Below are positions 37,388 through 60,993 of a stretch of DNA of 64,000 nucleotides, in pieces. The DNA lies in the NCBI GenBank assembly GCA_011050465.1, contig DRFQ01000009.1:334-64333 (forward strand). The letters run 5' to 3'. This stretch comes from Candidatus Nealsonbacteria bacterium. GTDB taxonomy: Bacteria; Patescibacteriota; Minisyncoccia; Minisyncoccales; RBG-13-36-15. The position numbers and the translations under genes are program-made. Position 1 is the first letter of the stretch, and each line of letters opens with the position of its first letter. The notes under the pieces are model-generated. The model did not search any database. It was not told the origin of the DNA and worked only from the letters and a program-made list of their open reading frames with translations.

Positions 37388-37461
37388 TGCGGGGTCGTCT
37401 AACGGTAGGACGGATGCCTCTGGAGCATTTAATCTAGGTTCGAATCCTAGCCCCGCAGCCA
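37388..37461 (+). tRNA. tRNA-Gln (CUG), CCA encoded
   Basis: U1-A72 acceptor TGCGGGG/CCCCGCA, D arm GTCT-AACGGTA-GGAC, anticodon arm GATGC-CTCTGGA-GCATT, T arm CTAGG-TTCGAAT-CCTAG, then GCCA. Confidence 0.9.
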
Positions 37462-37487
37462 TCATATGCTAAGTCAGGTGACCGAGA
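37456..37487 (+). repeat. Left direct repeat (att-like): cagccatcatatgctaagtcaggtgaccgaga
   Basis: It matches 46194-46225 at 30 of 32 positions and overlaps the tRNA-Gln 3-prime end. Confidence 0.85.
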
Positions 37488-37489
37488 TG

Positions 37490-37511
37490 CCCGGCATTGC
37501 CGGGTGTTTTT
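37490..37511 (+). terminator. Hairpin plus T-run downstream of tRNA-Gln
   Basis: cccggc-att-gccggg followed by TGTTTTT. Confidence 0.5.
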
Positions 37512-37581
37512 AGTTATTGACTTTTTTTGAAAATAGAACAGAATTAAGGATGAATTATTATTTATAAAAAGAAATTTATAT

Positions 37582-38043
37582 ATGAATTTCGAAAGCATTA
37601 TTAAGGGAAGAATTGCCAGTATTATTACTAGCTTAATGTTTCAAGACGCTGATTATTTAGTCGTAAATTACGGACATGAAAGTATCCCTGATCGCCTTGT
37701 ACAATTAGGCGTCTCAAAAGACGGTAAGGCCGCGGAAGTATTACTCACTAGCCCATCTTTTATTGTCATGAATAAAAAGGATCGTTCCGTTAATTTGCTC
37801 CAAATCAGATACCAAGGTGAGGGCGCTAGTGGTAGAAATATTATTTGGAGATATGAAAAAATGCAGAGATATTGGCCTGGTAGTCATTTATTATTAGTTC
37901 GTCCCAGAAAGCCTTACTTTTTTATAATGACCGTAACAAAAAATGGGCCTAAGCCCATTCCATTAATAGATTCTAAAATTTTCAATGTAGATAAGGGAAT
38001 AGTTTTGAAATTTGGGCAATTCGTTAAGAAGTTTCTTTCATAA
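37582..38043 (+). CDS. Hypothetical protein (153 aa), first gene of the element
   Basis: An intact ORF with no confident motif. Confidence 0.4.
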   Translation: MNFESIIKGRIASIITSLMFQDADYLVVNYGHESIPDRLVQLGVSKDGKAAEVLLTSPSFIVMNKKDRSVNLLQIRYQGEGASGRNIIWRYEKMQRYWPGSHLLLVRPRKPYFFIMTVTKNGPKPIPLIDSKIFNVDKGIVLKFGQFVKKFLS

Positions 38044-38066
38044 AAAAGCCCAAGATTAACGCGGTG

Positions 38067-38298: not shown

Positions 38299-39615
38299 CT
38301 ATTTTTCCAGCAGGATTTTTTTGTCTTTTAGAATTAGTTTGCTTTTCAGAAAGAAGAGGAATTCTCTTTTTTCAACCAGCGTTCCTTCTCTGAGAAGATA
38401 CTTTGCGTAATTTCGTATATCGATATCAACGTTATTATTTTCTTTTTTATGGCCCAGTACTCCGATCCTGAATTTATTGAATCTTGTGATTTCCTGTTCT
38501 ATTCTTGATTTTACCCCTAACTCATCTAAATCAATTCTATCCATCAATTCTATCAACTCGTTGATTAAATTTGGTTCATTGACAGCAGGATTTTTACAAT
38601 CAATATTTCTGGCTTTCGTGCAGAAATAATAGACGTGGCGGTTTACACCACCATCTTTTAATTTTTTGAACTTTTCATCAGCTGATATTCCCGAACCGCA
38701 ATAGCCGCATTTAATCAGTTTCGTGAAAGCGAATTCTTTGCTCTCGGTTTTTGGAATAAAGTTTTCATTAAGCGTCGTCTGAACCCTATCAAATAATTCC
38801 TTATTTATAATCGGCGTGTGCTTGCCAATATACCACTTGTTACTTCCCACTGGATATTCAAACTCTCCGTAATAGAAGTGATTTCGGAGAATGAGATAAA
38901 TGTTGGCAAGCACAAGCAGCTTGCCGTTTTTAGTTTTGAATTTTATCTCTCTCAGCCAACGATATACCTTACGTCCGCTCCATTGTTCGCTTGCCACTCT
39001 TTCAAACATCTGCTTTATAACCGGAGCTCTCTTTGGGTCAATCCTCGCCTGGCACTTTTTATCAGCGTGTTTTTCGTTGAGGTAGCCTGTAGGAGCGACT
39101 CCCGGCCTAAGTCCCATCTCGCATCTGGTTCGCAGCCCTCGCTTCACATTTACCGCTTTGTTGTCATTCTCGAGCTTAGCTTGAGATCCCAATATCATAA
39201 GCATGAACTTTTCGTTCGGGTTATTAGTGAATCTTTGCCCGAATGTCCTTATTTCCAATAGAAGCTTTTTATCCATCAAATCTACGATAGAACCTAAGTC
39301 TCCGGCATTTCTGCTCAGCCGGTCTGGAGCCCAAGTTAAAATACCATTGTATTTTCCTTCTTTTATTTCAGCCAGCATTTGATTAAAAATCTCTCTTTGG
39401 CCGACTTCCTTTGAAGAATGAGATTCGCGCTTGATATCTACAACTTTGAGGTTGTCTTTTTCTGCCAAAACCAACATCTCTTTTACCTGCGATTCTATAG
39501 AAAGAGTTTGTTTATCTTCTGCTTCAGTTGATTTTCTGGCATACAGGCAGTAACGTATATCAACCTTAACAGGGGATTGAAAATTATTAAGTCGTTCTTT
39601 TGTCGCTTGTTCCAT
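38299..39615 (-). CDS. Large serine recombinase
   Basis: N-terminal resolvase domain (CLYARKSTEAEDKQTLSIESQ), a recombinase domain, and a zinc-ribbon CGYCGSG...YYFCTK. Length 438 aa. Confidence 0.9.
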   Translation of the reverse strand: MEQATKERLNNFQSPVKVDIRYCLYARKSTEAEDKQTLSIESQVKEMLVLAEKDNLKVVDIKRESHSSKEVGQREIFNQMLAEIKEGKYNGILTWAPDRLSRNAGDLGSIVDLMDKKLLLEIRTFGQRFTNNPNEKFMLMILGSQAKLENDNKAVNVKRGLRTRCEMGLRPGVAPTGYLNEKHADKKCQARIDPKRAPVIKQMFERVASEQWSGRKVYRWLREIKFKTKNGKLLVLANIYLILRNHFYYGEFEYPVGSNKWYIGKHTPIINKELFDRVQTTLNENFIPKTESKEFAFTKLIKCGYCGSGISADEKFKKLKDGGVNRHVYYFCTKARNIDCKNPAVNEPNLINELIELMDRIDLDELGVKSRIEQEITRFNKFRIGVLGHKKENNNVDIDIRNYAKYLLREGTLVEKREFLFFLKSKLILKDKKILLEK

Positions 39616-39816: not shown

Positions 39817-39846
39817 TTGACACCCGACCAAATGGTCGGGTATTAT
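39817..39846 (+). promoter_or_regulatory. Promoter of the lexA-like/hsdM operon with an embedded palindromic operator (cccgaccaaatggtcggg, 39823-39840)
   Basis: TTGACA (39817-39822), an 18-nt spacer made up of the 18-bp palindrome, then TATTAT (39841-39846). ATG 39853 lies 6 nt after the -10 box. Confidence 0.5.
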
Positions 39847-39852
39847 AATATA

Positions 39853-40500
39853 ATGACTATAAAAAAAGAAATTATTACCAGAAGACAAAAAGAGTTATTA
39901 TCTATTATTTACGAATATATTAAGGACACTGGATATCCGCCAACCTTTGAAGAAATGAGAAAAAGATTAAATGTGTCCTCAAACCAATCGATTATCGATC
40001 TTTTGGTAAAATTAGAAAAACAGGGAGTTATTAAACGAAATGAGTCTTCGGCTCGAGGTTTAGCAATGTTGCCTTTAGGATATAGGATGCTTGGCCAACC
40101 GTCACTTGCTGCTTTTTTAGGCATTACAAGTGCAGGAGCACCCATTGAGGCTATAGAAATATCGGGAGAATGGCAATCAGTTTCTTCGGATATTAAAAAA
40201 CTTAAGGACGAAGTTTTTCTTTTGAAAATTTCCGGTGATTCAATGATTAATGCCGGTATTGAAGACGGCGATGTTGTTTTAGTAAAGGATCAAAAAGAAT
40301 TTTCCTCTCGCGATATTGTCTTAGCTCAAGTAGGGGACGACTCGACTATCAAGCGTTTTATTTCAGAAGATACACCACCATATGTTTATCTTAAGCCGGA
40401 AAATCCAAAATATAATATTATTCTTTTTACCGAAGAAAGTCGACTTATAGGAAAGGTTATTTCTGTTTTTAAAAATGGCTATTGGAAGCCGGTTAAATAA
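39853..40500 (+). CDS. LexA-like S24-peptidase repressor
   Basis: N-terminal winged-helix region (LLSIIYEYIKDTGYPPTFEEM..SNQSIIDLLVKLEKQGVI), an Ala-Gly cleavage-site context (SAGAP), Ser in GDSM and Lys in TIKRF. Confidence 0.85.
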   Translation: MTIKKEIITRRQKELLSIIYEYIKDTGYPPTFEEMRKRLNVSSNQSIIDLLVKLEKQGVIKRNESSARGLAMLPLGYRMLGQPSLAAFLGITSAGAPIEAIEISGEWQSVSSDIKKLKDEVFLLKISGDSMINAGIEDGDVVLVKDQKEFSSRDIVLAQVGDDSTIKRFISEDTPPYVYLKPENPKYNIILFTEESRLIGKVISVFKNGYWKPVK

Positions 40501-40509
40501 TTAAAATCT

Positions 40510-42465
40510 ATGCCAACTAAAAAACTCAATAAAACCAAAGAAATAATTGATAAAATTTTTCGCGACCCAGAAATAACCTATGGTTTAAAAGAATTCGAAG
40601 AAATTGACTTCGAAAAAGTTTTAGAAATTACCGAGGAAAGTCGAGATAAATTTTACATTAAAGACATTAAATCAAAAAAACTAAAACTTGTTTTTGATGA
40701 ATCAAAAAAGCAGGGTAAACCCGAAGAAATTATTCGACAACTTTGGCTCTACAAACTTAATACTCAGTATAAATATCCTTTTGATCGTATAGATACAGAA
40801 AAAAGTATTCACTTTGGTCGAGAGATTCACGCCAAAGCTGCTGACATCGTTGTTTATAAAAAAGATAAAATCACGCCGTTTATTATCCTAGAGATTAAAA
40901 GTCCAACCGAAAAGAAAGGAATTGAACAACTTAAAAGCTATCTTTCTGCCGAAGGTTCAGAAATAGGGGTTTGGTCAAATGGTAAAGAGCGAGTAATATT
41001 ATATAGACCATATCCAAAAGAGTTTCAAGATTCTTTAAGTGATATACCTCGAGCCGATCAAACCATCGACGATTTATTTGAAATCAAAAAAACTTGGTCC
41101 GAATTAAATCCAAAATTTGATTTTGTTAGAATTATCAAACGTATAGAAGAATTAGCTCTCGCTGGTTCTGGAGCAAATGTTTTTGAAGAAATCTTTAAAA
41201 TAATTTATGCCAAACTCTATGATGAAAAACTGGCACGTGAGCGGCGCGAGAACCAAGAAGTGCTTTTTAGGAAATATCGTGATCCCGAGAAAACATTTGA
41301 GGTGATCAACGACCAGCTTTTTAAAAATGCAATTAAAGAATGGCCAGATACTTTTGAAGAGTCAGATCGTATTAAGCTTTCTTCAGCAAGGCTTAATATC
41401 TGTGTGCCATTTTTGGAAAATGTTCGTCTTTTTGAATTAGGGAAAGGCGAACTGGAAATTATTGATAGTGCGTTTGAATATTTAATCACGGAAGTTTCAA
41501 AAGGTAAAAAAGGACAGTATTTTACACCTCGGCATGTCATCAAAATGTGTGTAAAGATGACGAATCCTAAAGCTGACGAATATATTATTGATCCCGCCTG
41601 TGGCTCCGGCGGTTTTCTTTTACATACAATGTATTATGTTTGGGAGAAATTAACCACAGAGGCAGCAAAAAATGATTATGCAGCAAAGTACCTCTTTGGG
41701 TTGGATTTTGACGAGAATATGCGTCGTATTTCCCAGGCTTTAATGCTTATTGCAGGTGATGGTAGACATCATATTTTTAAACGTGATTCACTTGATGCTC
41801 GGGACTGGCAAGGAGTAGAAAGCGAGGAGGCACGAGTAGCGTTGAAGCCGCTTTTATTAAAATTGGAAAATCCATCTGAAGCAAAAGAAAATCAACTTAC
41901 TTATAGGTATTTGAATTTTGACATTTTATTGACCAATCCGCCTTTTGCCGGAGAAAATCCCGAGTCAGGATTGTTGCGCCAATATGAACTTGCTAAAAAA
42001 GATGGCAAATTAAAGAATAATGTTGAGAGGCACATTCTTTTTATTGAGCGTTCTCTTGACGTCATTCGTCCTGGCGGCCGAATGGCAATCGTCTTGCCGC
42101 AAGGCGTCTTAAATAATACTAATATGGAGTTTGTCCGAGAATATGTTCTTAGTAAAGCAAGGATTTTAGCCGTAGTCGGACTCCATGTTAACACATTTAA
42201 ACCTCATGCTGGAACCAAAACTTCTATTTTATTTTTACAAAAATGGAATGAAAAAGAAAAACCACCTAAAAATTATCAAATTTTTATGGCGGTTTCAAAA
42301 AAGCCAGGCAAAGATAATTCCGGAGATTATGTGTATAAAAAAGATGATAAAGGAAATTATATTCACGATGCCAAAGGCCGTAAAGTTTTAGACCACGACC
42401 TCGGTGAGATCGCCGAAGCATTTGTTGATTTTGCCAAAAAACAAAAATTTAGTTTTTGGGAATAG
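40510..42465 (+). CDS. hsdM: Type I-like N6-adenine DNA methyltransferase (HsdM) fused to an N-terminal HsdR_N/PD-(D/E)xK-like domain
   Basis: Motif I DPACGSGGFL and motif IV NPPFAG. The N-terminal region AADIVVYKKDKITPFIILEIKSP...QLKSYL...WSNG resembles the HSDR_N nuclease-like fold (D...ExK). Confidence 0.85.
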   Translation: MPTKKLNKTKEIIDKIFRDPEITYGLKEFEEIDFEKVLEITEESRDKFYIKDIKSKKLKLVFDESKKQGKPEEIIRQLWLYKLNTQYKYPFDRIDTEKSIHFGREIHAKAADIVVYKKDKITPFIILEIKSPTEKKGIEQLKSYLSAEGSEIGVWSNGKERVILYRPYPKEFQDSLSDIPRADQTIDDLFEIKKTWSELNPKFDFVRIIKRIEELALAGSGANVFEEIFKIIYAKLYDEKLARERRENQEVLFRKYRDPEKTFEVINDQLFKNAIKEWPDTFEESDRIKLSSARLNICVPFLENVRLFELGKGELEIIDSAFEYLITEVSKGKKGQYFTPRHVIKMCVKMTNPKADEYIIDPACGSGGFLLHTMYYVWEKLTTEAAKNDYAAKYLFGLDFDENMRRISQALMLIAGDGRHHIFKRDSLDARDWQGVESEEARVALKPLLLKLENPSEAKENQLTYRYLNFDILLTNPPFAGENPESGLLRQYELAKKDGKLKNNVERHILFIERSLDVIRPGGRMAIVLPQGVLNNTNMEFVREYVLSKARILAVVGLHVNTFKPHAGTKTSILFLQKWNEKEKPPKNYQIFMAVSKKPGKDNSGDYVYKKDDKGNYIHDAKGRKVLDHDLGEIAEAFVDFAKKQKFSFWE

Positions 42466-42470
42466 AAATT

Positions 42471-44369
42471 ATGAAATTATTTCTTAAAGCAATTGAATTC
42501 GAAGATTACAGAAATATAAAAAATGGCTCAAGACTAATTTTTGAGCCTATTACTACTTTAGTTGGAGCAAATGAGAGCGGGAAGAGTAATATAATTAGAG
42601 CCATACAATTGTTATCCGAGGATTTTAATGAAAATGACACGAAAATGGGCAGTATTAGGGCATCAAGAAACGAAATGCCATTACTTAGGTATTTTTTTGA
42701 ACTTAAAAGTAAAGACCTGTTCGGATATTTTAAACAAAGTATTAAAAATTTCAGGGATAAAAATCTGATTTGTTTAATCGTAAGTGGTGAAACAAATGAA
42801 TTAATGTTATCAGATCAACGTTTTTCATTAAGGGAAATTGAATATAGAAATCAATGGAAGAATACTAGTGGTCAGCCCATGAAATTTAAGGCTCGCAAAG
42901 GAAAAGAGATAGAATTACAACAAAACGAAAAAATTTTTGGGGATAATGATAATAAATTTGCTATAGCGAAACTAGCTAGAGAGAATAAAATAACGAAACT
43001 TACGACTGAAGAAATAGACTCAGATGTTATAGATAAAATTTTTAAAGATTTTCTTCCAGAAATAGAATACTGGGAATATGACCAAGATAAACATTATCTT
43101 CCAGACCATGTATTCTGGGATAAATTTTTAACAGCGCCAGATAACTTTTTACCAGTTAAAAATTTATTTTTAATTGCTTGCTCCGAAGGAAATCTAACAG
43201 ATTTTAATACTGCCTTATCTAGTTTTAAAGGTAAAGATCATGAGATTCAAAAATATCTTGATGATGTTAGTAAGTCGCTTAACAAAATTATCAAAAAAAC
43301 ATGGAAGCAAAGCAATATAGAACTACAACTTTTTTATCAAACAGATAAATTGAGATTTGATATATACGAAGGAGGTCGCAGAACTCCTCCAAGCGTAAGA
43401 AGCGATGGTTTAAAATGGTTTCTTTCCTTTTTGCTTGATTTTAGATCAAGAGGTGAGTTGCAAAATAAGATTATTTTATTTGATCAACCGGGTGAGAAAT
43501 TACACCCCGGTGGTCAAAAAGAGTTACGAGAGCGTTTTACAGAAATTGCTTTAAAAAATCAAGTGATTTTTGCAACCCAATCTCCATTTTTAATTGATCG
43601 TAATTCTTGGTCAAAAGTAAAATTTTTACAAAGAAAAAATGGAGACCCTGAAATTAAGCAACCTACTAAATATGATGTAAAGAACGATGAATTACTTCGG
43701 CATTCACTTGGGTATTCACTGGCAGATGTGGGACAAGCCAATGACTTTAATATTGTCGTAGAGGGTTATACCGACCAGTTTTTATTATTAGATATAGGAA
43801 GAAGACTTAATGAAATAGCGTCTTATTTAGAAAAGAAACCGATTATTAATTTAAATAAGATAGCTATCTTTGATTCGCGTGGATTTACCACAATTAAAAA
43901 AAGGGTTGATGAATTACTACAAGCTAATTTGCATGCCATCGGCCTTTATGATGGCGATGATGTTAGTAAAAAACGGTTCTCTCAAGATCGTAAATCTAAG
44001 AGATTTAGAAATCTTCTATTTTCCTTAGATGAAATAGTTGATCAGAATAATTATAAAACGATTGAGGATTTAGTCCCTGAAAGATTATGGGAGAAATCAT
44101 GCAAGGAATATTTTAAAAAGAATCGGTCTAAATTAACTAAGAAAAACTTTTGTCATCCTCGTTGGGGAAAAATTAAGGAATGGTACAAGAATAACTATAA
44201 TACCGAAATTACCCGAAAAGAGAAAGAGAGTCTATGGGAAGTTATTTTTGATAATTGGGATCAATATTTTGATAGCGTAAAAGATATTTCAAAAATTTCT
44301 GAGATTAATATAACAAAACAGGCATTAGAAAGTTTAGCTAAAAAAGTTGCTCGTGGAAAGAATAAATAA
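42471..44369 (+). CDS. OLD-family protein: ABC-type ATPase fused to a C-terminal TOPRIM nuclease domain
   Basis: Walker A GANESGKS, SDGLKWFLSF (signature-like), ILFDQPGEKLHP (Walker B region), and TOPRIM VVEGYTDQ ... GLYDGDD. The start is taken at ATG 42471 (MKLFLK). Confidence 0.75.
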   Translation: MKLFLKAIEFEDYRNIKNGSRLIFEPITTLVGANESGKSNIIRAIQLLSEDFNENDTKMGSIRASRNEMPLLRYFFELKSKDLFGYFKQSIKNFRDKNLICLIVSGETNELMLSDQRFSLREIEYRNQWKNTSGQPMKFKARKGKEIELQQNEKIFGDNDNKFAIAKLARENKITKLTTEEIDSDVIDKIFKDFLPEIEYWEYDQDKHYLPDHVFWDKFLTAPDNFLPVKNLFLIACSEGNLTDFNTALSSFKGKDHEIQKYLDDVSKSLNKIIKKTWKQSNIELQLFYQTDKLRFDIYEGGRRTPPSVRSDGLKWFLSFLLDFRSRGELQNKIILFDQPGEKLHPGGQKELRERFTEIALKNQVIFATQSPFLIDRNSWSKVKFLQRKNGDPEIKQPTKYDVKNDELLRHSLGYSLADVGQANDFNIVVEGYTDQFLLLDIGRRLNEIASYLEKKPIINLNKIAIFDSRGFTTIKKRVDELLQANLHAIGLYDGDDVSKKRFSQDRKSKRFRNLLFSLDEIVDQNNYKTIEDLVPERLWEKSCKEYFKKNRSKLTKKNFCHPRWGKIKEWYKNNYNTEITRKEKESLWEVIFDNWDQYFDSVKDISKISEINITKQALESLAKKVARGKNK

Positions 44370-44375
44370 CTACTT

Positions 44376-45737
44376 ATGGTTACTCATCTCATAATCCAAA
44401 AATCACAACTAGAAGGCGGTTTGCGTCTTGATGCGGAATATTATCAACCGGAATATTTAGAGTTAAAAAATAGATTGTGTAAAACCGAATCATATAAATT
44501 CTGGAAAGATATTAAAGGAAACTTTATTACGGGACCCTTTGGCTCAGAATTTAATGTTGAAAACTATGTTTTAAACGGGAAATATCGGTATGTTCGTGGA
44601 AAAGACGTTAAAGAATTTTTCCTTTCTGACGATGATAACGTATATATACCCCAAAAAGACTTTGAAAGACTTAAAAAATATTCATTAAAAGAAAATGATA
44701 TTTTAATTTCAGTTGTTGGAACGCTTGGAAATGCTGCTATTATTGATAATTCTGTTCCTCCAGCAATTTTTAGCTGTAAGAGTACAGTTTTTCGTAGCGA
44801 ATCGATAAATCCTTACTATTTTATTAGTTATCTTAATTCGCTTTATGGTCGAAAATTATTAGGCCGTAATGTACGCGGCGCAGTTCAGACAGGACTTAAT
44901 ATTGATGATTTGAGATTATTGCCAGTATTTATTCCACCAAAACAACAACAGGAATTGATTGGTTCGTTGGTCTCGAAGGCAAAGGAGGAATATGAAAATA
45001 CTAAATTATTTTATTCTCAAGCTGAAGATTTACTTTTAGAAGAATTGGGTTTAAAAGATTTTGAAGTCGGGGATGATTTGTCTTATGTTGTTAATCTTTC
45101 AGATTTAAAATTAGTTAACCGTATTGATGCCGAGTACTTTCAGCCGAAACACGAGAAATTAATATCAAAAATTAAAAACCAAAATATAAAAAAACTTGCT
45201 GATTTAGTTTCAATAAAAAAGGGGATTGAGATAGGAAGTGAGAAATATCAAAAAGAGGGAAAGTTATTTGTTCGAGTGAGCAATCTTTCAAAACAGGGGA
45301 TTATTGATAAGGATCAGAAATATTTAAGCGAAGAATTATATCAGAAACTAAAAAAAGATTTTGAGCCAAAAGCAGGAGAAATTTTACTAACTAAAGATGC
45401 AACTCCGGGCATGGCTTATTTATTAAAAGAATCAATTGAGGGAATAATTGCCGGCGGAATTTTAAGATTAAAACCCGAAACAAAAATCGAACCAGAATAT
45501 TTAGCTTTAGTGATAAATTCTATTGTTGGTCAATCACAAGTAGAACGAGATACCGGTGGTTCAGTAATTATCCACTGGCGACCAGAACAAATTAAAAATT
45601 GTTCAATTCCAATTTTACCTAAATCTACCCAGCAAAAAATTGCTGATTTGGTTCGCCAATCCCACGAAGCTCGCAAAAAAGCAAAAGAATCATTAGAACA
45701 AGCCAAACAAAAAGTCGAAGAATTAATTGAGAAATAA
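44376..45737 (+). CDS. hsdS: Type I restriction-modification specificity subunit (two target-recognition domains)
   Basis: Duplicated TRD openings RLDAEYYQPEY and RIDAEYFQPKHEKL. Conserved helical spacers (QQQELIGSLV, QQKIADLVRQ). Confidence 0.85.
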   Translation: MVTHLIIQKSQLEGGLRLDAEYYQPEYLELKNRLCKTESYKFWKDIKGNFITGPFGSEFNVENYVLNGKYRYVRGKDVKEFFLSDDDNVYIPQKDFERLKKYSLKENDILISVVGTLGNAAIIDNSVPPAIFSCKSTVFRSESINPYYFISYLNSLYGRKLLGRNVRGAVQTGLNIDDLRLLPVFIPPKQQQELIGSLVSKAKEEYENTKLFYSQAEDLLLEELGLKDFEVGDDLSYVVNLSDLKLVNRIDAEYFQPKHEKLISKIKNQNIKKLADLVSIKKGIEIGSEKYQKEGKLFVRVSNLSKQGIIDKDQKYLSEELYQKLKKDFEPKAGEILLTKDATPGMAYLLKESIEGIIAGGILRLKPETKIEPEYLALVINSIVGQSQVERDTGGSVIIHWRPEQIKNCSIPILPKSTQQKIADLVRQSHEARKKAKESLEQAKQKVEELIEK

Positions 45738-45748
45738 TCAAAAATATT

Positions 45749-48522: not shown

Positions 48523-48535
48523 TTAAATAAAAAAT

Positions 48536-54300: not shown

Positions 54301-54527
54301 CGGCTTCTGGCGGAAACGGTACGGTTGATGCTGATTATGACAATAGTCCAGCTGACAGCTATGCCCTCATTACTGGTAACTTTCCGGATGTGATTGCAAC
54401 AGACGCAGACGGCGATGACGTGAGCACCACATATTCGCTCTACTATGCAGCAAACATTACCGCAAACACCGAGGCCCACACCGACTACACTTCCAGCCTA
54501 ACCTACGTTGCAACCGGAAACTTTTAG
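51360..54527 (+). CDS. Large (1055 aa) Thr/Ser/Asn/Gly-rich cell-surface protein with N-terminal membrane anchor, internal repeats, FN3-like module and a C-terminal domain shared with the next gene
   Basis: TM helix LAICLILLMVAGWIF. A motif repeated three times (YTRVRSSALTL / WTRVRGASAL / YTRLRSSGLTL). ITINWTT...YSYKHF is FN3-like. The last 190 aa or so are paralogous to 54678-55817. It is GC-richer than the core genes. Confidence 0.7.
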   Translation: MAKIVKNKLGNFLAICLILLMVAGWIFSGWPQVWHDPPFPPKVEDVHATTRTIEQQINIIDQEYESEVLGSYKPTDNSLGLIRWDSAKYPGAVVYFEAVAMVFAETDTVKVALFSSDGTQVANSEVTHSSAGNYTRVRSSALTLGTLPNLQSNTDYSVRVKAVNDWVSLKAARLIIVQSDGTKITDTVTQIEAGDNQSTTATSGSPSTLANPNYYMFDKDMFSGTYGTDINAYFEASLKASAILSAAAYYFNAYDSGTAWTNAPAQMVDGSTSNFAVTGGSDENQRNTASTCDATCGAKSETITKVELRVYACQDNADNGWITLTPYFSGSSQGDGHTWSAVPDGNSCETGVAAWSPYFDITSDTNAPGTWGWSDVENLDVNVFGDRQGGADVIHAAQVDIQVTYEPGTTSTAYAELYNRTNSAVVGNSTISVNSTSWTRVRGASALNSSDNWDITNDDEYEVRIYSSSGSDAAYIANAKIVIEQSISGGIDKLETVHQYNNTLVSLGGDVVTVYAQLTISGGAAISGSKQSTGSGSYTRLRSSGLTLSTNDFDVELSVNDSAYTEQGFMNKYDSTNWVGGTFVYLFETILKNVVTVREDSSTSWLIIQISGLASIIATTTIGDGTDPSDSTVAPESGITDLDAVTFVTNTGTDSITAVTVTLGAGDSDNLSEVRITNDNGLTTYFSAISSPSSDTLNFSGGTPIPVTASSTQFKVRITPETHANMPAPQGAEYAITGTITAFTSTNTQAGTDTGSAMITIDNLSPNNATSTSGSVTSDTEITINWTTSNSTDYNRSIVLRWQASLPGADVPAEGTNYSLDDTIGGAKVACVENTGTSSTAYSGVDGSGADECSTTALSVGTQYSYKHFEKDDNGNWNTGFTNASSPLTTTGGATLTFSISDNDIFFGDLSASASKWADNTADGSTTAVVAHTLAASTNVTNGYTITVNGTTLTSGGDTIIAMASEAILTTGQEEFGLRITASGGNGTVDADYDNSPADSYALITGNFPDVIATDADGDDVSTTYSLYYAANITANTEAHTDYTSSLTYVATGNF

Positions 54528-54677
54528 TTTATAGGTTTTCCACAACCAGCTTATTGATGTTGTTGCTTGATACTGGTATTCTGTTATAATAAATAAAAAC
54601 CATAAAAAGGTTACGTTTCGTATCAGCCAATATAACTATTCCTTTCCCTTGGTCGATAAGGAATACAAAAACTGCCA

Positions 54678-55817
54678 ATGAACCAACTATATTTTATAAG
54701 AAGAAACATAGATATAAAAAAAGTCCTTACCAGCTTGGGGCTTATTGTCGCAGTGCTGGTGTTGTTGATAGCGCCGCCCGTGCAGATTGCAAGGGCAGCT
54801 ACCTTGCTGAACATGAGAGACACTCTCACTACCGTGAAGGCAAGTACCGTAACTGACCATGAGATTATATTCCGCACGCCAACGGGAGCTGATGAGTCCA
54901 CAGACACCATCATCATTGACATTGGAGCTACCGATACCTCGTGGAATACCAGCAGCTTAGCGATTGGTGACGTGGATTTGGCGCACTCAGCCGGTGCCCA
55001 GAGCGACTGCGACGCTCCAACATTCAGCAACGAGGAGACACTTGCAGCTTCCGCTACCGCCACCGATTGGCAACTGGACTTTGACACCACAAACGATATC
55101 CTTACCTTCACTGCCCCAACAGACGGCGTGGGAGCCGCTGCTATTGCAACTAACGCCTGTGTGCAGATACAGATTGGTACCAATGCTAGTGGAGGATCAA
55201 ACCAGATTACCAACAGCACTGCGGGCAGCAAGAATATAGACATTTTGGGTACCTTTAACGACACCGGTACCATAGTGGTAACGCTCATAGCTGACGATAT
55301 AGTAGTGACAACTGCCACGGTCGTTGCTTCTCTAACGTTTACCGTTGATGATAATGATATCTTTTTTGGCACCTTGGGCGCTGGGGCAGCAAAATGGGCA
55401 GATAATACCGCAGACGGAAGCACTTCGTCAGTCGTTGGCCACACCATGACCGTAGGTACCAACAGTACATCCGGCTACAGTGTTACTTACAACGGTACCG
55501 CGCTCACGTCTGGTTCAGATAAAATTTCCGATAGCGGCAACACCACCATTACCGGAGATGCGGACGGAACTCCCGGCTCAGAGGAGTTTGCCATTGGGGT
55601 TACCGTGAGCGACAACGCGACTATTGCTTCTGGATATGAGCAGGCCTCCAACAACTTCAAGTTTGTTGAAAGCACCACTGCCACACTTGTCTCTGAAACT
55701 ATTCAAACCGCCGCAGAAACAATCTCTGTCTACTACATAACCAACATTGCCGCAAACACCGAGGCCCACATCGACTACACTTCCAACATAACCTACATTG
55801 CAACCGGGAACTTCTAG
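54678..55817 (+). CDS. Secreted surface/fibre-subunit-like protein, paralogous C-terminal domain
   Basis: Signal peptide ending IARA-ATLL. The C-terminal domain (DNDIFFG..KWADNTADGST...TEAHIDYTSNITYIATGNF) aligns with the C-terminus of the 1055-aa protein. Confidence 0.7.
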   Translation: MNQLYFIRRNIDIKKVLTSLGLIVAVLVLLIAPPVQIARAATLLNMRDTLTTVKASTVTDHEIIFRTPTGADESTDTIIIDIGATDTSWNTSSLAIGDVDLAHSAGAQSDCDAPTFSNEETLAASATATDWQLDFDTTNDILTFTAPTDGVGAAAIATNACVQIQIGTNASGGSNQITNSTAGSKNIDILGTFNDTGTIVVTLIADDIVVTTATVVASLTFTVDDNDIFFGTLGAGAAKWADNTADGSTSSVVGHTMTVGTNSTSGYSVTYNGTALTSGSDKISDSGNTTITGDADGTPGSEEFAIGVTVSDNATIASGYEQASNNFKFVESTTATLVSETIQTAAETISVYYITNIAANTEAHIDYTSNITYIATGNF

Positions 55818-55861
55818 GAGCTCTCTTGCTCGATGCCGTGCTGGCGTGATAGCATAACATC

Positions 55862-56959
55862 ATGAAATTTTGGGTACTCATTGGCTTTTTTTTGGCTATT
55901 GGGGTAATGCTTTTACCTCAAGGAGCACAGGCTCTCACCGTTTCCCCGGTGCGGGTGGAACTTGCTGCCGACCCCGGAGCAAACGTGAAAGGCGTGATTT
56001 TGCTTATTAATGAACAGGAAGGAACCAGAACTTTTTATTCTTCTCTTGAAAATTTTGAAGCTCTGGGAGAAACAGGCACACCAACATTTATTGAAAGCGC
56101 AGAAGGACTGGCAACGTGGATTGAAACTGCTTCTCAAGTAACCATAGAGCAAGGAGAGAAAAAAGAAGTTCCCTACACCATTATAGTACCCCAGGACGCT
56201 GACCCCGGAGGCCACTTTGCAGCCATTTTCTGGAGCACTTCTCCTCCCCGAGCAGAAGAGGAAGGAGGGGTTTCTATTGGGGTTAAACTCGGTGTTCTCA
56301 TATTGCTCCGCGTAAGCGGAGAAATAGAAGAGGAAGGAGGACTTCTAGAATTTAACGCTCAAGATAAACAAAGCTTTTTCAGTTCGTTACCCATAACGCT
56401 TACCTACCGTTTTCAAAACGGTGGGGGTGACCGCGTGAAGCCAGAGGGAGAGATAACGATAAAGAATATATTTGGCAGAATCTCAGCTGTTCTCCCAGCA
56501 AACGAATCTGAGGGAAATGTATTGCCCCAGTCTATTCGGAAGTTTCAGGTGACCTGGGATATAACCCAGAAGGAGGGCGAGCTCAATACGAGGCAGGCAC
56601 AAAAGGATGATGAGAAAGTTGGATTTTTTGGAGCAGTCAAAAGACAATGGAGCGATTTTCATTTTGGTAGATATACTACTCAGCTAAACTTAAATTATGG
56701 GGCGGAAAATGAAAAAGCTGAAGCTGGCTTCAGCTTTTTTGTTATTCCCTGGCAGCTTCTGAGTATTATACTTTTTGTGGTGATGGTTGTTGGTCTTCTT
56801 AGTAAAATAGCAATAAAGAGATATAACCAATGGATTATCGCAAGGGCCGTACAGATGCAAGTACCTAAAGAAATCAACACAACCAAAGCGAGGAAGAAAA
56901 TAAAAACAAACCTTCGTAAAAACAAAAGAAGCCAAGTAAAACGAAGTATTAAAAGATGA
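55862..56959 (+). CDS. Signal-peptide protein with two beta-sandwich-like halves, a C-terminal TM helix and a basic tail (DUF916/DUF3324-like, chaperone-like)
   Basis: AQA-LTVSPVRVEL start, PGGHFAAIFW, then a C-terminal TM helix (LLSIILFVVMVVGLL) and a K/R-rich tail. The architecture resembles CscA-type partners of WxL proteins. This is an inference. Confidence 0.55.
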   Translation: MKFWVLIGFFLAIGVMLLPQGAQALTVSPVRVELAADPGANVKGVILLINEQEGTRTFYSSLENFEALGETGTPTFIESAEGLATWIETASQVTIEQGEKKEVPYTIIVPQDADPGGHFAAIFWSTSPPRAEEEGGVSIGVKLGVLILLRVSGEIEEEGGLLEFNAQDKQSFFSSLPITLTYRFQNGGGDRVKPEGEITIKNIFGRISAVLPANESEGNVLPQSIRKFQVTWDITQKEGELNTRQAQKDDEKVGFFGAVKRQWSDFHFGRYTTQLNLNYGAENEKAEAGFSFFVIPWQLLSIILFVVMVVGLLSKIAIKRYNQWIIARAVQMQVPKEINTTKARKKIKTNLRKNKRSQVKRSIKR

Positions 56960-57997
56960 ATGAAGCCTTTTATCAATTACTTTTTATCGCTAATAATTAT
57001 TCTCATTTTCTTAGGTGTAACATCTTTTTTCCATATTCACGCTGCTGAAGAAACTGTTACTATTTCAGCCACCGTAGAAGATTGCGGTAATGACGTTAAA
57101 GGAGGAGATGAACAATGCGATGGCTCTGATTTAAATGGGGAAACTTGTGTGAGCCGTGGTTTTACTGGTGGCACTTTAAGTTGTAACGATAATTGTACTT
57201 TTAATACTTTTGGTTGTAGCTCAGGCGGAGGAGGTGGCGGAGGAGCCTATATTCCGCCTCCGCCGCAAACTGCAGTAAATTTTAGTGGTAGGGCCTATCC
57301 ACTAAGCAAAGTTACCGTTTTAAAGGACGGCCAAGTAGCAATAACCACCATAGCAGGTCCTGATGCAAATTTTTATATTTCATTATCCGGTTTGTCTTCC
57401 GGTAATTATATATTTTCGGTTTATGGTGAGGATAATAAACAAAGACGCTCTAGTTTATTTACATTTCCAGTATTTGTTACCAGAGGTGCCATTACAACTA
57501 TCAGTGGTATTTTTCTTGCACCCACAATTGATGTTGATAAAAGCGAAGTGAAGCGAGGCGACAATATCGCTATTTTCGGGCAGAGCGCGCCTCAAGGCGA
57601 AATTACTATTTCTATTAATTCAGAAGAGGAAATTTTTGTAAAAACTAATACTGATGCAGACGGTATTTATTTATATAATTTCGACACTAGTCCATTAGCG
57701 ATAAGACAACATCTTACCAAATCAAAAGTTGCTGCAGATGGGATTATTAGTTCTTTTAGTAAAACGGTAACTTTTAATGTTGGAACCAAGACAGTTTTCA
57801 AAGAAAAACCAGAATTTTTAAAAGGCGATTTGAATAATGACGGTAGAGTAAACCTTGTTGATTTTTCTATTGCGGCCTATTGGTATAAACGGTCGATCAG
57901 CGCTGAATTTGCCCGAAAGGAAGCCGAGAGGTTAAATAACGACGGCAAAATTGATTTAGTGGATTTTAGTATTATGGCATTTTATTGGACAGGATAA
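56960..57997 (+). CDS. Secreted protein with Cys-rich module, poly-Gly/Pro linker, Ig-like region and C-terminal dockerin-like repeats
   Basis: CGNDVKGGDEQCDGSDLNGETC...C..NC.F..C; GGGGGGGAYIPPPP; GDLNNDGRVNLVDFSI and LNNDGKIDLVDFSI (two EF-hand-like dockerin segments, about 57818-57994). Confidence 0.65.
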   Translation: MKPFINYFLSLIIILIFLGVTSFFHIHAAEETVTISATVEDCGNDVKGGDEQCDGSDLNGETCVSRGFTGGTLSCNDNCTFNTFGCSSGGGGGGGAYIPPPPQTAVNFSGRAYPLSKVTVLKDGQVAITTIAGPDANFYISLSGLSSGNYIFSVYGEDNKQRRSSLFTFPVFVTRGAITTISGIFLAPTIDVDKSEVKRGDNIAIFGQSAPQGEITISINSEEEIFVKTNTDADGIYLYNFDTSPLAIRQHLTKSKVAADGIISSFSKTVTFNVGTKTVFKEKPEFLKGDLNNDGRVNLVDFSIAAYWYKRSISAEFARKEAERLNNDGKIDLVDFSIMAFYWTG

Positions 57998-58023
57998 GAA
58001 CTTCATTTGATTAATATTTCAAT

Positions 58024-58947
58024 ATGCAAAAACCAATAAAATTAAAAACCCCAAATTATTTCCTAATAATATTGCTAGTTTCGGTACTACTTTTTGTTGC
58101 CGGGCAGGTTTTTGCAGCTAGGGTCTTTATAGATTCTAAGAGTCAAGAAATGAAGATAGATGCTCAATTTGAAGCGAGTATTTTTCTCGATACAGAGGAA
58201 GCATATATTAATGCGATAGAAGGAAAGATTATATTTCCAGCAGATTTATTAGAATTAAAAGAAATAAGAGACGGCAATTCTATTGTTAATTTTTGGATTG
58301 AAAGGGCAAGAGTTGAATCTGCGGGACAAGTTATTTTTTCAGGAATTACTCCCGGCGGTTATATAGGAGAGAGGGGTTTAATTTTTTCTATTATCTTTGA
58401 ATCGAAAAAAGAAGGTAGGGGCATAATTGAGATTCATAGCGCCAAAACATTACTTAATGACGGAAAGGGCACAGAGGCGACGGTAACAACTTCTGATTTG
58501 CAATTTCTTATATCTGGGCAAATGTCACCTTCTGAAATTTCAATTCCTGAGATTGTAGATAGCGATTCGCCAGAACCATTTGAGCTAACTATTGCTCAAG
58601 ACTCAGAAATATTTGATGGAAAGTATTTTTTAGTATTTACTGCTCAAGATAAAGGAGCAGGGATAGATCATTACGAAATCTTAGAAGCTAGTCAGCGCGG
58701 TTCTCTGCAAGGCTTAATAAAAAAAGAAGAATGGCAAGGTGGAGAGAGTCCGTACGTTTTGCGGGATCAAAAACTCAAAAGCTATATCTATGTGAAGGCG
58801 ATTGACAGAGCGGGGAACGAAAGGATTGCCACATTGCATCCTCAAAATTCGCTAAAATGGTATGAAAATTATTTCGTTTATATTATAATCATAGTAGGCT
58901 TCGTCGTTATCTATATGCTATGGCGGATTCTAAGAAAAAGAAAATAA
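58024..58947 (+). CDS. Membrane-anchored protein with cohesin-like domain
   Basis: N-terminal signal/TM. A cohesin-like beta domain (FEASIFLDTEEAYINAIEGKIIFPADLLEL). GIDHYEI...AIDRAGNE module. C-terminal TM plus RKRK. Confidence 0.55.
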   Translation: MQKPIKLKTPNYFLIILLVSVLLFVAGQVFAARVFIDSKSQEMKIDAQFEASIFLDTEEAYINAIEGKIIFPADLLELKEIRDGNSIVNFWIERARVESAGQVIFSGITPGGYIGERGLIFSIIFESKKEGRGIIEIHSAKTLLNDGKGTEATVTTSDLQFLISGQMSPSEISIPEIVDSDSPEPFELTIAQDSEIFDGKYFLVFTAQDKGAGIDHYEILEASQRGSLQGLIKKEEWQGGESPYVLRDQKLKSYIYVKAIDRAGNERIATLHPQNSLKWYENYFVYIIIIVGFVVIYMLWRILRKRK

Positions 58948-60722
58948 ATATAGAACAAGGGCATCATTATAAACCCAATAAAAGCACTGAAAAATTTGGC
59001 TTAGGCTTCATTTTTTTATTGGGTATGGTTTTAACGATTATTAATTTGACACTGCCTAATTTTGTATTAGCGGCAGATCTGTATTTTTATCCTTCCGTTG
59101 ATTCTTATAATGTTGGCCAGATTTTTTCTGTTATTGTGTATGTTTCGAGTACTGACCAAACAATGAATGCGGCTTCTGGTGTCGTCTCTTTTCCTAAAGA
59201 CAAATTAAATGTTATTTCTATTTCTAAAAGCGAATCTATCTTTAGCTTATGGGTACAGGAACCAATTTTTTCCAACAGTATCGGCACAATTAATTTTGAG
59301 GGTATAGTGTTGAACCCCGGCTTTATAGGATTAACCGGGAAAATCCTTGCCATAAATTTTAAAGCAAAAAATACTGGAAATGCATCTTTAGCTTTTTCTT
59401 CCGGTTCAGTATTAGCTAATGATGGTAGGGGAACAAGCATATTAGAAGCTATGGATTCTGCAAGCTATACTCTAAACTCAGAAGAAGTTACCTCTCAAGA
59501 TGAGGAAGAAAAAGAGTATATTCCGCCTAAAATTGGAGTACCGATTGCTCCAACGGTTTCTTCATCTACCCATCCCGATTCTGAAAAATGGTATTCAAAT
59601 AATGACCCTGAATTCTACTGGAAACTGCCGTCTGATGTCACTGGGGTAAGCTTCTTGCTTTATAAGAGTTCCATTGCTAACCCAGGACCAATTTCCGATG
59701 GCATAATGGAATCTAAAAAATTTGAAGATATTGATGATGGCGTGTGGTATTTCCATATCCAACTTAAAAATAAATATGGTTGGGGAGAAATTACGCACAG
59801 GAAAGTTTTAATTGATACTGTTCCTCCAGAGTTGTTCGAGATTGAAACCCAAAAAGATGACCCACTAGATCCTCGACCAAAATTTCTTTTTACATCTACA
59901 GATAATACTTCGGGAATTAGTTATTATGAGGTAAAAATTGGCAAGGAATATTCAGAAACAGTATCAGCAGCTGATATAAAAGAAAAACCCTATCAAGTAC
60001 CGCCACAGTCCCCAGGAAAACATTTGATTGAAGTTAAGGCATTCGATAGGGCAGGAAATTTTAGTTCAGATTCGATTGAAATCGAAATTTTACCAATTGA
60101 AGAACCAAGTATTTTGAATTATCCCGAAAGAATTAGAATTGGGGAGATTTTAGAGATTGAAGGAAGGTCGTTACCTGAAACTTCGGTAATAATTTTTATT
60201 CAAAGAGAAGAGAAGGTGCCAATTTTAGAAGAAGTTAAGACTGATTCTCAAGGAGATTGGAAATTTGTTTATGAGAAAGCTTTAGTCCAAGGTAGATATA
60301 GTTTCTGGGCTCAGGCTAAAGACGGGAGAGAAGCATTAAGCTACCCTACTCAAAAATATTTTTTTGAAATTGGCTTACCTCCTTTTTTAAAACTTGGGAA
60401 AATAACAATAGAATATTTAACTACCGTGGTTACTCTATTTATTTTAATCGTTGCAACCGTCGTTATTATCTTTTATGCTTGGTATCGAATTTTACTCTGG
60501 AGGAAAAAACTTAAAACGGAAACTACGGAAGCGGAGAAGGCCCTCCGTAAAGCCTTTAGTTTTTTGAGGAAAAGAATTAACGAACAGATTAGAATGTTCG
60601 ATTCTCGGCCTGGTCTAAGCGGAAAAGAAAGAAGAATTCGAGATAGCTTAGAGGATAGCCTAAAGATTGCCAAAGAAATTGTTGCCAAAGAAATTAAAGA
60701 TATAGAAAAGGAATTAGAGTAA
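58920..60722 (+). CDS. Membrane-anchored protein with cohesin-like domain, Ig-like modules, C-terminal TM and a cytoplasmic coiled-coil tail
   Basis: FSVIVYVSSTDQTMNAASGVVSFPKDKLNV is cohesin-like. GISYYEV...AFDRAGN is the same module as in the previous gene. TM helix VVTLFILIVATVVIIFYAW. It overlaps the previous gene by 28 nt, and the start is uncertain. Confidence 0.55.
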   Translation: MADSKKKKINIEQGHHYKPNKSTEKFGLGFIFLLGMVLTIINLTLPNFVLAADLYFYPSVDSYNVGQIFSVIVYVSSTDQTMNAASGVVSFPKDKLNVISISKSESIFSLWVQEPIFSNSIGTINFEGIVLNPGFIGLTGKILAINFKAKNTGNASLAFSSGSVLANDGRGTSILEAMDSASYTLNSEEVTSQDEEEKEYIPPKIGVPIAPTVSSSTHPDSEKWYSNNDPEFYWKLPSDVTGVSFLLYKSSIANPGPISDGIMESKKFEDIDDGVWYFHIQLKNKYGWGEITHRKVLIDTVPPELFEIETQKDDPLDPRPKFLFTSTDNTSGISYYEVKIGKEYSETVSAADIKEKPYQVPPQSPGKHLIEVKAFDRAGNFSSDSIEIEILPIEEPSILNYPERIRIGEILEIEGRSLPETSVIIFIQREEKVPILEEVKTDSQGDWKFVYEKALVQGRYSFWAQAKDGREALSYPTQKYFFEIGLPPFLKLGKITIEYLTTVVTLFILIVATVVIIFYAWYRILLWRKKLKTETTEAEKALRKAFSFLRKRINEQIRMFDSRPGLSGKERRIRDSLEDSLKIAKEIVAKEIKDIEKELE

Positions 60723-60857
60723 ATTAGGATCTGAAGCCAACATCATATAGTTTGCCAAAATTAAACCTGCTATAATCAAAGCAGGTTTAAAGTCTACCTG
60801 AAATGTTAATTATATGCCAAAACCGGCACCTCAAAATACTCTTTGGTATTCATAAAA

Positions 60858-60888
60858 TAGGTTCGAACAGCGTTCACGCCCCGCAGCA
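60858..60888 (+). pseudogene. Degenerate copy of the tRNA-Gln 3-prime half (taggttcgaa...gccccgcagca)
   Basis: It shares taggttcgaa and gccccgcagc with tRNA-Gln 37438-37461, but the T stem is disrupted. It marks the far end of the accessory region. Confidence 0.55.
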
Positions 60889-60993
60889 CTTCGACAAGCT
60901 CAGTGCAGGCCACCTTGAGCGCAGTATCGAGGCCGACCGTGAGGGCTTCCCGTTAGGGCGACCGAGATGGATATAAGTAAAAAAAATCGCTAG

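Follow-up and report, generated by a model that had tools for sequence, protein, structure and literature searches.

A probable tandem integration array with a large serine recombinase at the 3' terminus of a tRNA-Gln gene in Candidatus Nealsonbacteria

Introduction

The sublocations that tyrosine integrases usually use lie inside the tRNA gene, in the anticodon or the T-loop. Known large serine recombinases (LSRs) mostly target protein-coding genes. The Ccr LSRs of the staphylococcal cassette chromosome (SCC) and SCCmec elements insert at the 3' end of rlmH/orfX without inactivating it; tandem SCC cassettes are bounded by direct repeats of the attachment site, and some have no recombinase of their own. 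Here, we describe a locus at which an LSR gene is found at a tRNA end. It lies in a stretch of 64,000 nucleotides ("the window") of contig DRFQ01000009.1 of a Candidatus Nealsonbacteria bacterium, a contig assembled from a marine-sediment metagenome, whose FtsX groups with those of Nealsonbacteria-like Patescibacteria. The DNA from 37462 to about 61.9 kb is read here, with a probability of roughly three in four, as a series of DNA segments integrated in tandem, with the 3' terminus of tRNA-Gln(CTG) as their anchor. The region has the features of a tandem tRNA island: an intact tRNA at its border, repeats of the tRNA 3' part, an integrase (of the serine type) at the tRNA-proximal border, and variable content.

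The tycheposons of Prochlorococcus resemble the window in several ways. They integrate at tRNA genes, are separated by partial tRNA copies, and are pushed outward by newcomers; they also leave degenerate remnants and carry defence and niche cargo in a streamlined genome (10.1101/2020.12.28.424599). The hallmark of tycheposons is a deep-branching tyrosine recombinase, and no tyrosine recombinase is present among the 21 ORFs scanned at 37.5-62.5 kb of the window, where the enzyme is an LSR; 910 of 937 tycheposon-like elements use a tyrosine recombinase, and a minority carry an LSR (10.1101/2020.12.28.424599). In addition, the tycheposon boundary lies inside the tRNA gene, whereas the boundary in the window lies at the tRNA terminus; the repeated unit in the window includes a conserved left-end motif, and near-identical recombinases are found at different tRNA species. 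The comparison is one of descriptions.

The likeness to SCC and SCCmec consists of an LSR, the 3' end of a conserved gene, and tandem cassettes of which some have no recombinase. The best NCBIfam matches of the window LSR are CcrB and XisF, both below cut-off. The match to CcrB (E = 6e-38) scores 130.7 bits against a cut-off of 900, and those to CcrC and CcrA score 52.5 (cut-off 900) and 51.4 bits (cut-off 700), so that the protein falls outside the Ccr families. The window also differs from SCC in host phylum, in its target (a tRNA rather than rlmH), in a right end that mimics the target, and in having one recombinase gene rather than the ccrAB pair.

The tRNA-Gln end and its copies

The anchor of the array is an intact tRNA-Gln(CTG) gene (37388..37461, plus strand), on which ARAGORN and Rfam (tRNA, 60.9 bits) agree, and whose end at 37461 is as given in a preliminary description of the window. 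The 3' end reads AGCCCCGCAGCCA (a 13-mer) or, at greater length, ...TAGCCCCGCAGCCA. The gene ftsX (36441-37349) lies 39 nt upstream, and the order ftsX-tRNA-Gln(CTG) is retained in most of 80 species-level relatives.

Behind this gene, the preliminary description had listed several copies of the tRNA end, and each of them is present. The CAGCCAT at 46194 opens a 32-nt repeat, in which 46194-46225 match 37456-37487 with 93.8% identity by self-comparison of the window. The 13-mer AGCCCCGCAGCCA recurs exactly at 49713-49725 and with one mismatch at 51251-51263; at up to 2 mismatches it has 3 matches where 0.42 are expected, a number reached in none of 100 shuffled sequences, which places it above chance. 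The CAGCCAAGCAC at 51151 is the start of one copy of a 147-nt repeat (51151-51297 versus 49720-49866, 96.6% identity by self-comparison) that brackets a polyprenyl synthase gene. The degenerate T-arm and acceptor copy at 60858-60888 consists of TAGGTTCGAA, 10 nt, and GCCCCGCAGCA; these are the T-loop and acceptor decamers of tRNA-Gln with 5 extra bases between them. The same arm with its 5 extra nt is also found at 49696-49725 and beside an LSR element in locus L144. In all, copies of the tRNA 3' part lie at 46175-46199, 47292-47316, 49696-49725, 49808-49831, 51239-51262, and 60860-60888, every one co-oriented with the tRNA. The long open reading frames (ORFs) from 46259 to 62538 are likewise all on the plus strand, as had been claimed for the protein genes of this part.

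Two further motifs, GTATCGAGGSCGACCG (6 matches versus 0.18 expected) and GACCGAGA (8 matches versus 1.2 expected), are confined to the same region. All their copies are on the plus strand within 37.4-61.0 kb, and none lies in 1-37 kb.

Architecture of the junctions

Each copy of the tRNA end is the left half of a two-part junction, whose right half is a conserved left-end motif. The left half combines a T-arm-like GGTTC... with an acceptor-like ...CAGC(C)A, and the right half belongs to a small set of related motifs, all with GACCGAGA at their end. The type-1 motif, TCATATGCTAAGTCAGGTGACCGAGA, is found at 37462 and 46200, and its left-end motif is given as ATGCTAAGTCAGGTGACCGAGA; motifs of types 2 and 3, such as ACAGTCAGCGCAGTATCGAGGCCGACCGAGA, have 4 additional nt and are found at 47311, 49726, 49832, 51164, 51263, and about 60915. 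The first junction, J0 (37437..37490, plus strand), thus comprises the T-arm and acceptor 3' strand of the tRNA itself, a 7-nt linker CCATCAT, and the type-1 motif ATGCTAAGTCAGGTGACCGAGA, and is followed by a terminator hairpin at 37489-37512. The junctions divide the region into at least five segments.

The halves vary in length as well. Counted from GGTTC to where the acceptor part stops, a left arm is 25 or 30 nt long (37437-37461 versus 49696-49725 and 60860-60888), and a right half measures 20 or 24 nt from CAGC to GACCGAGA (37462 versus 47311). These spacing classes of 4-5 nt recall the 5-bp shift of the zinc-ribbon motif between attB and attP of serine integrases (PMC3783163). A labelling of the halves as attB-type and attP-type by this spacing was tried and rejected; the pattern does not fit a simple attL/attR scheme.

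Such a series of intergenic repeats might also be read as RNA. The copies could be functional tRNA-like elements that direct, for example, processing or termination of the transcript of a long co-directional operon, rather than recombination sites. All copies are indeed intergenic and on the coding strand, terminator hairpins follow some of them, and among distant relatives the trailers are better conserved than the neighbouring proteins. However, Rfam detected only four tRNAs in the whole window at gathering thresholds and nothing in 46.0-51.4 kb in E-value mode, and the predicted folds of one composite junction and of the right end of the first segment are unremarkable when set against shuffled sequence (z = -0.28 and -0.42). 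Most of the T-arm copies could not form a T-arm, and the motifs go together with a recombinase gene and have no copy in the remaining 37 kb of the window. An RNA function in place of recombination is therefore very improbable.

The large serine recombinase and its tRNA targets

The LSR gene (38299..39615, minus strand; 438 aa) is convergent with tRNA-Gln and lies 838 nt from its end, at the tRNA-proximal border of the array. The protein has the PF00239 Resolvase (2e-20), PF07508 Recombinase (1e-14), and PF13408 Zn_ribbon_recom (1.5e-7) domains, all above gathering scores. This is the three-domain architecture of phage serine integrases such as those of A118/LI, SPbeta, Bxb1, and phiC31, and the nearest solved structure is the SPbeta integrase YokA. 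The likeness extends to the size of the putative attachment site, which in the window is about 50 bp, or about 25 bp on each side of its centre, as compared with half-sites of 25 bp (PMC3783163). The window system differs from these integrases in an identity of only about 26%, in its long junction identity, in its weak symmetry, and in having no recognised recombination directionality factor (RDF).

At least 8000 homologues of the LSR are present in the database, and the best 120, from hosts named Nealson-, Portnoy-, Staskawicz-, Nomura-, and Shapirobacteria and thus of several candidate phyla, are 77-93% identical. By comparison, the identity of FtsX is already down to 60% among its top 30 matches. 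On these identities, the LSR gene is spreading horizontally. A prophage origin was considered and rejected: IMG/VR contains only 5 matches to the LSR, weak to moderate, and PHROGs gave essentially nothing for the unassigned ORFs. Two LSR copies, 74-84% identical to that of the window, are found within 10-20 kb on one contig in L107/L110 (Ga0316229_1000190), L156, and L154; therefore several elements of the family can coexist in one genome.

The association of the LSR with tRNA ends was surveyed in 80 metagenome loci with homologues 63-88% identical (tblastn). Of the 71 loci with enough flank, 38 have a tRNA gene no more than 2 kb past the stop codon of the LSR gene, in the relative orientation found in the window. 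Nine amino-acid types are represented: Gln (CTG, TTG), Arg, Lys, Asn, Glu, Gly, Leu, Trp, and Met. The type-1 motif was detected at 59 of the 80 loci with an LSR but at only 2 of 83 control loci with ftsX (p = 1e-23), with 93 copies on the plus (tRNA) strand and 5 on the minus strand. It directly abuts the tRNA end, at a fixed distance of 29 nt from the T-loop GGTTC, and the consensus of 64 distinct junctions is GGTTCGAnTCC..G...CGCAGCCAnCAnATGCTAAGTCAGGTGACTGAGAnGCAT. Across tRNA types, the type-1 junction motif clearly tracks the LSR. A type-2-like motif adjoins a more distant LSR (65% identical) in L176.

Pairs of closely similar LSRs at different tRNAs are informative about the boundary. 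Recombinases 94% identical are found at Leu and Arg tRNAs, and others 93% identical at Glu and Lys tRNAs, and in such pairs the similarity starts just after the discriminator base. Therefore the element boundary is the tRNA terminus, and the T-arm is the common part of the targets. At their far end, the LSR elements have a conserved right end (RE) of about 120-175 nt, the last 25-30 nt of which mimic the local tRNA 3' end: CAGCCA at Gln, GGGGCAC at Lys (L136), and CCTGCA at Trp.

LSR homologues are found at the same ftsX-tRNA-Gln site in six more genomes (L102, L105, L108, L110, L113, and L119) and more distant LSRs in three (L053, L061, and L044). The arm of RE1, the right end of the first window segment (GGGGTTCAGAACTGAGGTACACAGCCA), is identical in the window and in the 5.3-kb LSR element of L105. 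In that locus the order behind ftsX is tRNA-Gln, cassette, LSR element, RE junction, cassette, and RE.

An enzyme of another class might nevertheless have assembled the array. A classical tRNA-targeting tyrosine integrase, since lost or encoded elsewhere, would then be responsible, with the LSR as unrelated cargo or active only on its own element. Direct repeats of 32-147 nt that include a tRNA 3' end are typical of tyrosine-integrase islands, tycheposon-like elements overwhelmingly use such enzymes, and the type-2 and type-3 junctions have no direct link to the window LSR. Yet a Pfam scan of 21 ORFs at 37.5-62.5 kb found no tyrosine recombinase domain and no second recombinase, the type-1 motif accompanies the LSR over nine tRNA types, and the element boundary lies just past the discriminator base rather than in the anticodon or T-loop. 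A vanished tyrosine integrase is thus an improbable builder. The 321-aa ORF at 46259 was also considered as a hidden tyrosine integrase and rejected; it is a predicted membrane/coiled-coil protein and matches no family.

Variation of the site among relatives

Every relative examined has different DNA behind ftsX-tRNA-Gln, and pseudo-tRNA ends recur there. The single inositol-phosphatase cassette of L187 (FtsX 81% identical to that of the window), the GIY-YIG ORF of L186 (79%), the helix-turn-helix, DegV, and EF-P genes of L013 (76%), and the 2.4-kb insert of L015 (73%) all follow tRNA-Gln, as do inserts of 1.1-1.6 kb in L040, L019, and L034. L065 has at this site a LexA-methylase-HsdS module that is 62% identical to that of the window.

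The relative L015 supplies a direct comparison. Its tRNA-Gln is contiguous with a sequence of about 125 nt that is found in the window at 49713-49835 (93.5% identity over 123 nt); therefore about 12 kb came between the two in the window. Likewise, window 49808-49932 is about 90% identical to the tRNA-Gln end and trailer of L021 and L041, in which FtsX is only 53-57% identical to that of the window. Copies of RE, 75-88% identical over about 100 nt, end the inserts behind tRNA-Gln in L015, L040, L019, L034, and L187 as well as segment 2 of the window. These RE-ended inserts are 0.9-2.4 kb long, lie on the tRNA strand, and each carry unrelated cargo.

The contigs of metagenome-assembled genomes (MAGs) often break here. 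In 25 of 80 genomes the contig stops within 1 kb downstream of ftsX/tRNA-Gln, about four times the number on the upstream side (6 of 80; p = 9e-4), as would be expected of a site that is rich in repeats and differs between strains. Two short contigs, L097 and L180, have repeats at their ends, as assemblers yield at repeats, and prove nothing about mobility. An assembly artefact in the window was ruled out by concordant independent assemblies. Pairs of empty and occupied sites were sought by comparing the LSR loci that have ftsX with the 80 ftsX loci and were abandoned; FtsX in the closest pair is 64% identical and the flanks are unalignable.

None of the relatives has the same 23 kb, and the copies of the tRNA end are enriched. 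The central proposal of the preliminary description, that repeated site-specific insertion at the tRNA-Gln 3' end built the region, is supported by the contiguity in L015, the differing content in relatives, and the tRNA-proximal recombinase. A narrower reading would have segment 1 alone integrated, with the other tRNA-end copies as decaying scars or local duplications and most of 46-61 kb immobile. It would suit the lack of a recombinase in segments 2-5, a possible local origin of the 147-nt repeats by duplication, the polyprenyl synthase gene about 10 kb from tRNA-Gln in L013, and the lack of variants in the population. Against it, the proteins of segments 2-5 have no homologue within 10 kb downstream of ftsX in the 80 relatives, apart from a weak histidine phosphatase match (the u307/Big_13 pair is present upstream of ftsX in L072); cassettes with the same RE and unrelated cargo occupy the site in five other genomes; the GC content of segment 5 is 44-50% as compared with about 36% elsewhere; and the junctions retain their two-part architecture in a single orientation. 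On balance this reading is unlikely, if a little less so than a tyrosine-integrase origin, and integration of several segments is the preferred reading.

Several further observations concern the site. In tRNA 3'-end copies of another kind, the T-loop is split by a hairpin-forming insert of 30-50 nt, with CTTGGTTCG and AATCCAAGCCCCGCAGCA on either side of an insert that runs from ccTGCCCCGTAGT to GGGG. These copies are found in L187 (3647-3722), L033, L016, L013, L026, L051, and L107, just after tRNA-Gln in several relatives, and window 5176-5240 is perhaps also such a copy. In L019, an RE-ended cassette behind tRNA-Gln (11857-12531) encodes a 224-aa protein that, by sequence, may resemble an IS200/RAYT-type Y1 transposase. 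An exact scan of genome contigs with the 26-mer GGTACTAGACCGAGGCGGTTCGAGTC gave no match, and exact scans of viral contigs with a type-2 21-mer and an RE 27-mer gave none either.

A proposed mechanism

From this arrangement we infer the recombination events, the position of the crossover, and mobilisation in trans. Segment 1 (37462-46199) would be an autonomous integrative element that encodes its own LSR. In its circular form, the attachment site would join the right end, with its mimic of the T-arm and acceptor 3' strand, to the left end ATGCTAAGTCAGGTGACCGAGA, and the chromosomal partner would be the genuine tRNA end plus its trailer. The site would span about 51 bp, from the T-loop GGTTCGA to GACCGAGA (GGTTC to GAGA), and would have at its centre the 7-nt linker that follows the discriminator base. 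Conservation around this linker extends from -29 to about +27, with GGTTC and GGTCACC equidistant from the tRNA terminus. Exchange at the linker would leave the tRNA intact, and the element would bring a new terminator.

Segments 2-5, and perhaps the M24-family peptidase gene beyond them, have the same kinds of ends and no recombinase gene, and may have been inserted through site-specific exchange of the same type. Each could be a cassette in its own right that was mobilised in trans, or else what is left of an earlier element, with later arrivals displacing earlier segments away from the tRNA. Inserts that share an RE and have unrelated cargo are what one would expect if cassettes were mobilisable, and they recall SCC-like elements devoid of ccr, cis-mobilisable elements, and integron cassettes; full elements in decay are the alternative. 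The 147-nt repeats around the polyprenyl synthase gene may be the product of recombination between similar composite junctions, or of a local duplication.

An array of this kind also recalls an integron. Short, co-oriented cassettes of one to a few unrelated genes are stacked at a fixed site near a recombinase gene, and each closes with a conserved sequence of about 120-175 nt that resembles a recombination site. The window differs in that it has no IntI and no attC-type folded site (z = -0.42 for RE), and its recombinase gene lies inside a mobile segment, which sets it apart from integrons.

A number of points weigh against a multi-step, LSR-driven array. The overall dyad symmetry of the site is weak. 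The stretch common to J0 and the second junction is 32 nt long (94% identity), and that common to the composite junctions 147 nt, rather than the short core of an attL/attR pair; a further element whose left end follows the junction would account for the long identity, which is still atypical. A structural model of LSRs disfavours pairings other than attP x attB (PMC3783163), and the rules of pairing would have to be relaxed for insertion to recur next to a tRNA that is already occupied. The lack of a recombinase in segments 2-5 counts here too, and the polyprenyl synthase and M24 peptidase genes could be host genes trapped between junction remnants. No RDF was identified. Neither an excised circle nor a same-species empty site or strain variant lacking a segment was found; exact-protein look-ups with FtsX, the M24 peptidase, the polyprenyl synthase, and the 321-aa protein returned contigs of the population that all have the same gene order.

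The right border of the array

According to the preliminary description, core genes, namely an M24 peptidase gene and engB, resume after 60.9 kb. This holds for engB (61942-62538, plus strand), which is a true YsxC equivalog (TIGR03598, above cut-off). It probably does not hold for the M24-family peptidase gene (60994-61767, plus strand). The protein is not a methionine-aminopeptidase equivalog (NCBIfam) and has weak matches to Xaa-Pro peptidases. An RE-like fragment of element right-end sequence (61773-61826, plus strand) trails the gene, and therefore engB is the first clearly core gene. The next feature, 61900-61951, just upstream of engB, is 96% identical by self-comparison to a 52-nt terminator-like sequence at 47353..47404 (plus strand) within the array. 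In addition, LSR arrays have engB on their right in two other genomes, L107 and L112. These features together place the end of the array at about 61.9 kb; its right border is thus probably engB and not the M24 peptidase gene, and 60994..61951 is possibly a last, degenerate cassette.

The segments and their cargo

Segment 1 (37462-46199) contains the LSR, LexA, and a defence module of methylase and OLD-family ATPase. Between J0 and the LSR gene lies a 153-aa ORF (37582..38043, plus strand) of unassigned function, which has no match in Pfam, PHROGs, NCBIfam, or PADLOC and no homologue in the other LSR loci. The remaining cargo (39817..46018), all on the plus strand, was assigned by Pfam, TIGR00498, and PADLOC. 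It begins with a full-length lexA (39817-40500; TIGR00498, above cut-off), divergent from the recombinase gene. In L105, a LexA-like domain fused to a methyltransferase occupies the same position, and LexA may be an SOS-type switch of the LSR element. Next come a type I-like methyltransferase with an HSDR_N domain (40510-42465; Pfam, PADLOC MTase_I), an OLD/AriA-like ATPase (42456-44369; Pfam, PADLOC Old/AriA), HsdS (44376-45737; Pfam, PADLOC Specificity_I), and an SNase fragment (45749-46018; Pfam). Thus, within the defence cargo (40510-45737), the methyltransferase and HsdS are split by an OLD/AriA/GajA-like ATPase in the place of HsdR; PADLOC also matches mad2, mad3, and mad5 of the MADS system here. 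Two contigs, possibly from the same sample (L008, an NCBI MAG, and L009, a Logan run), both end inside hsdS at codon 371 of 453, which hints at strain variation in the second target-recognition domain of HsdS.

The segment closes with RE1 (46050..46225 including the junction, plus strand), whose last part is the tRNA-end mimic GGTTCAGAACTGAGGTACACAGCCA. RE1 is conserved in L015, L040, L019, and L034. The junction J1 (46175-46225, plus strand), which includes the 32-nt repeat of J0, has the second type-1 motif.

Segment 2, which extends to 47316, encodes the 321-aa predicted membrane/coiled-coil protein (46259..47224, plus strand), for which Pfam, PADLOC, PHROGs, and NCBIfam gave no family match. 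It ends in RE2 with the mimic GGTTCTAGACTAAGGATGTCAGCA, followed by the type-2 motif ACAGTCAGCGCAGTATCGAGGCCGACCGAGAGGCC at junction J2; RE2 and the motif together span 47231..47351 (plus strand), by repeat families and RE alignment. The 52-nt terminator-like sequence comes next. Terminator-like hairpins of one family (AAAATCGCCAA...GGCGGTTTTTTGATA) are found after several genes, at 47372-47401, 48874-48903, 61919-61948, and 62572-62601, and one also ends the L187 cassette (4630-4662).

Segment 3, taken as running to 49725, encodes a 196-aa protein of unassigned function, a histidine phosphatase, a cupin, and a 186-aa membrane protein (47411..49556, plus strand; Pfam, NCBIfam, PHROGs). At its end is a composite junction (49696..49867, plus strand) in which a long mimic (49696-49725) is followed by a type-3 motif and a truncated RE arm, and a second mimic (49808-49831) by a type-2 motif. 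Segment 4 (49868-51150) contains the polyprenyl synthase gene (50033..51091, plus strand; Pfam, NCBIfam) and is followed by the second copy of the composite junction (51140..51298, plus strand).

Segment 5 (51299-60857; cargo 51360..60722, plus strand; Pfam, NCBIfam) encodes two proteins with a Pam-pilin C-terminal domain (1055 and 379 aa), a 365-aa unassigned protein, a Big_6 and dockerin protein, a 307-aa unassigned protein, and a Big_13 protein. The 1055-aa and 379-aa proteins (51360-55817) both end in NCBIfam CPR_Pam_pilin_C (NF058581), with 59.2 bits (above cut-off) for the former and 39 bits for the latter, and their genes have a common 89-nt 3' end that is 87% identical. With its high GC content and its Pam-pilin, Big_6 and dockerin, and Big_13 proteins, the segment looks like an imported module for pili and surface adhesion.

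The distal junction, J5 (60858..60967, plus strand), consists of a long mimic of the tRNA-Gln end, a 22-nt trailer, and type-2-like and GACCGAGA motifs. The trailer is that of tRNA-Asp (5397-5418): the 22 nt after tRNA-Asp (GCACTTCGACAAGCTCAGTGCA) are identical to 60886-60907, and the L015 insert ends with them as well (13473-13494). T-arm-like pieces are also present in the spacer that separates tRNA-Met from tRNA-Asp (window 5170-5320), and other tRNAs of this genome may also have been past targets.

Implications

That tRNA genes are hotspots of integration and accumulate tandem islands is textbook knowledge, and to this extent the finding is ordinary. The unusual part is the machinery: a serine recombinase whose site is apparently centred on the tRNA terminus, and which is found at nine kinds of tRNA in much of the Patescibacteria (65-93% identity). 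A large survey of LSRs leaves tRNA unmentioned, a study of genomic islands in Patescibacteria mentions neither recombinases nor tRNA, and a search of the accessible literature found no description of this LSR family or of serine recombinases at tRNA ends in Patescibacteria. Thus, a tandem integration array at a tRNA is of a known kind, while an LSR family that targets tRNA termini is apparently undescribed.

As a tentative and somewhat doubtful generalisation, a very widespread, highly conserved clade of LSRs in Patescibacteria may use the near-universal tRNA T-loop and 3' terminus as a half-site, hop between tRNAs, and build arrays of trans-mobilised cassettes that are a main route of gene gain. 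If so, this choice of target would let near-identical enzymes hop between tRNA species, and arrays like those of integrons or SCC would be a main route by which reduced genomes gain genes for defence, pili, and metabolism. If the mechanism holds, the LSR might also serve as a compact integrase whose landing site is conserved and predictable, of use in the still very limited genetics of these bacteria and possibly in genome engineering. The mechanism would then also explain how genes for defence and surface functions are exchanged among ultra-small symbiotic bacteria with few known mobile elements.

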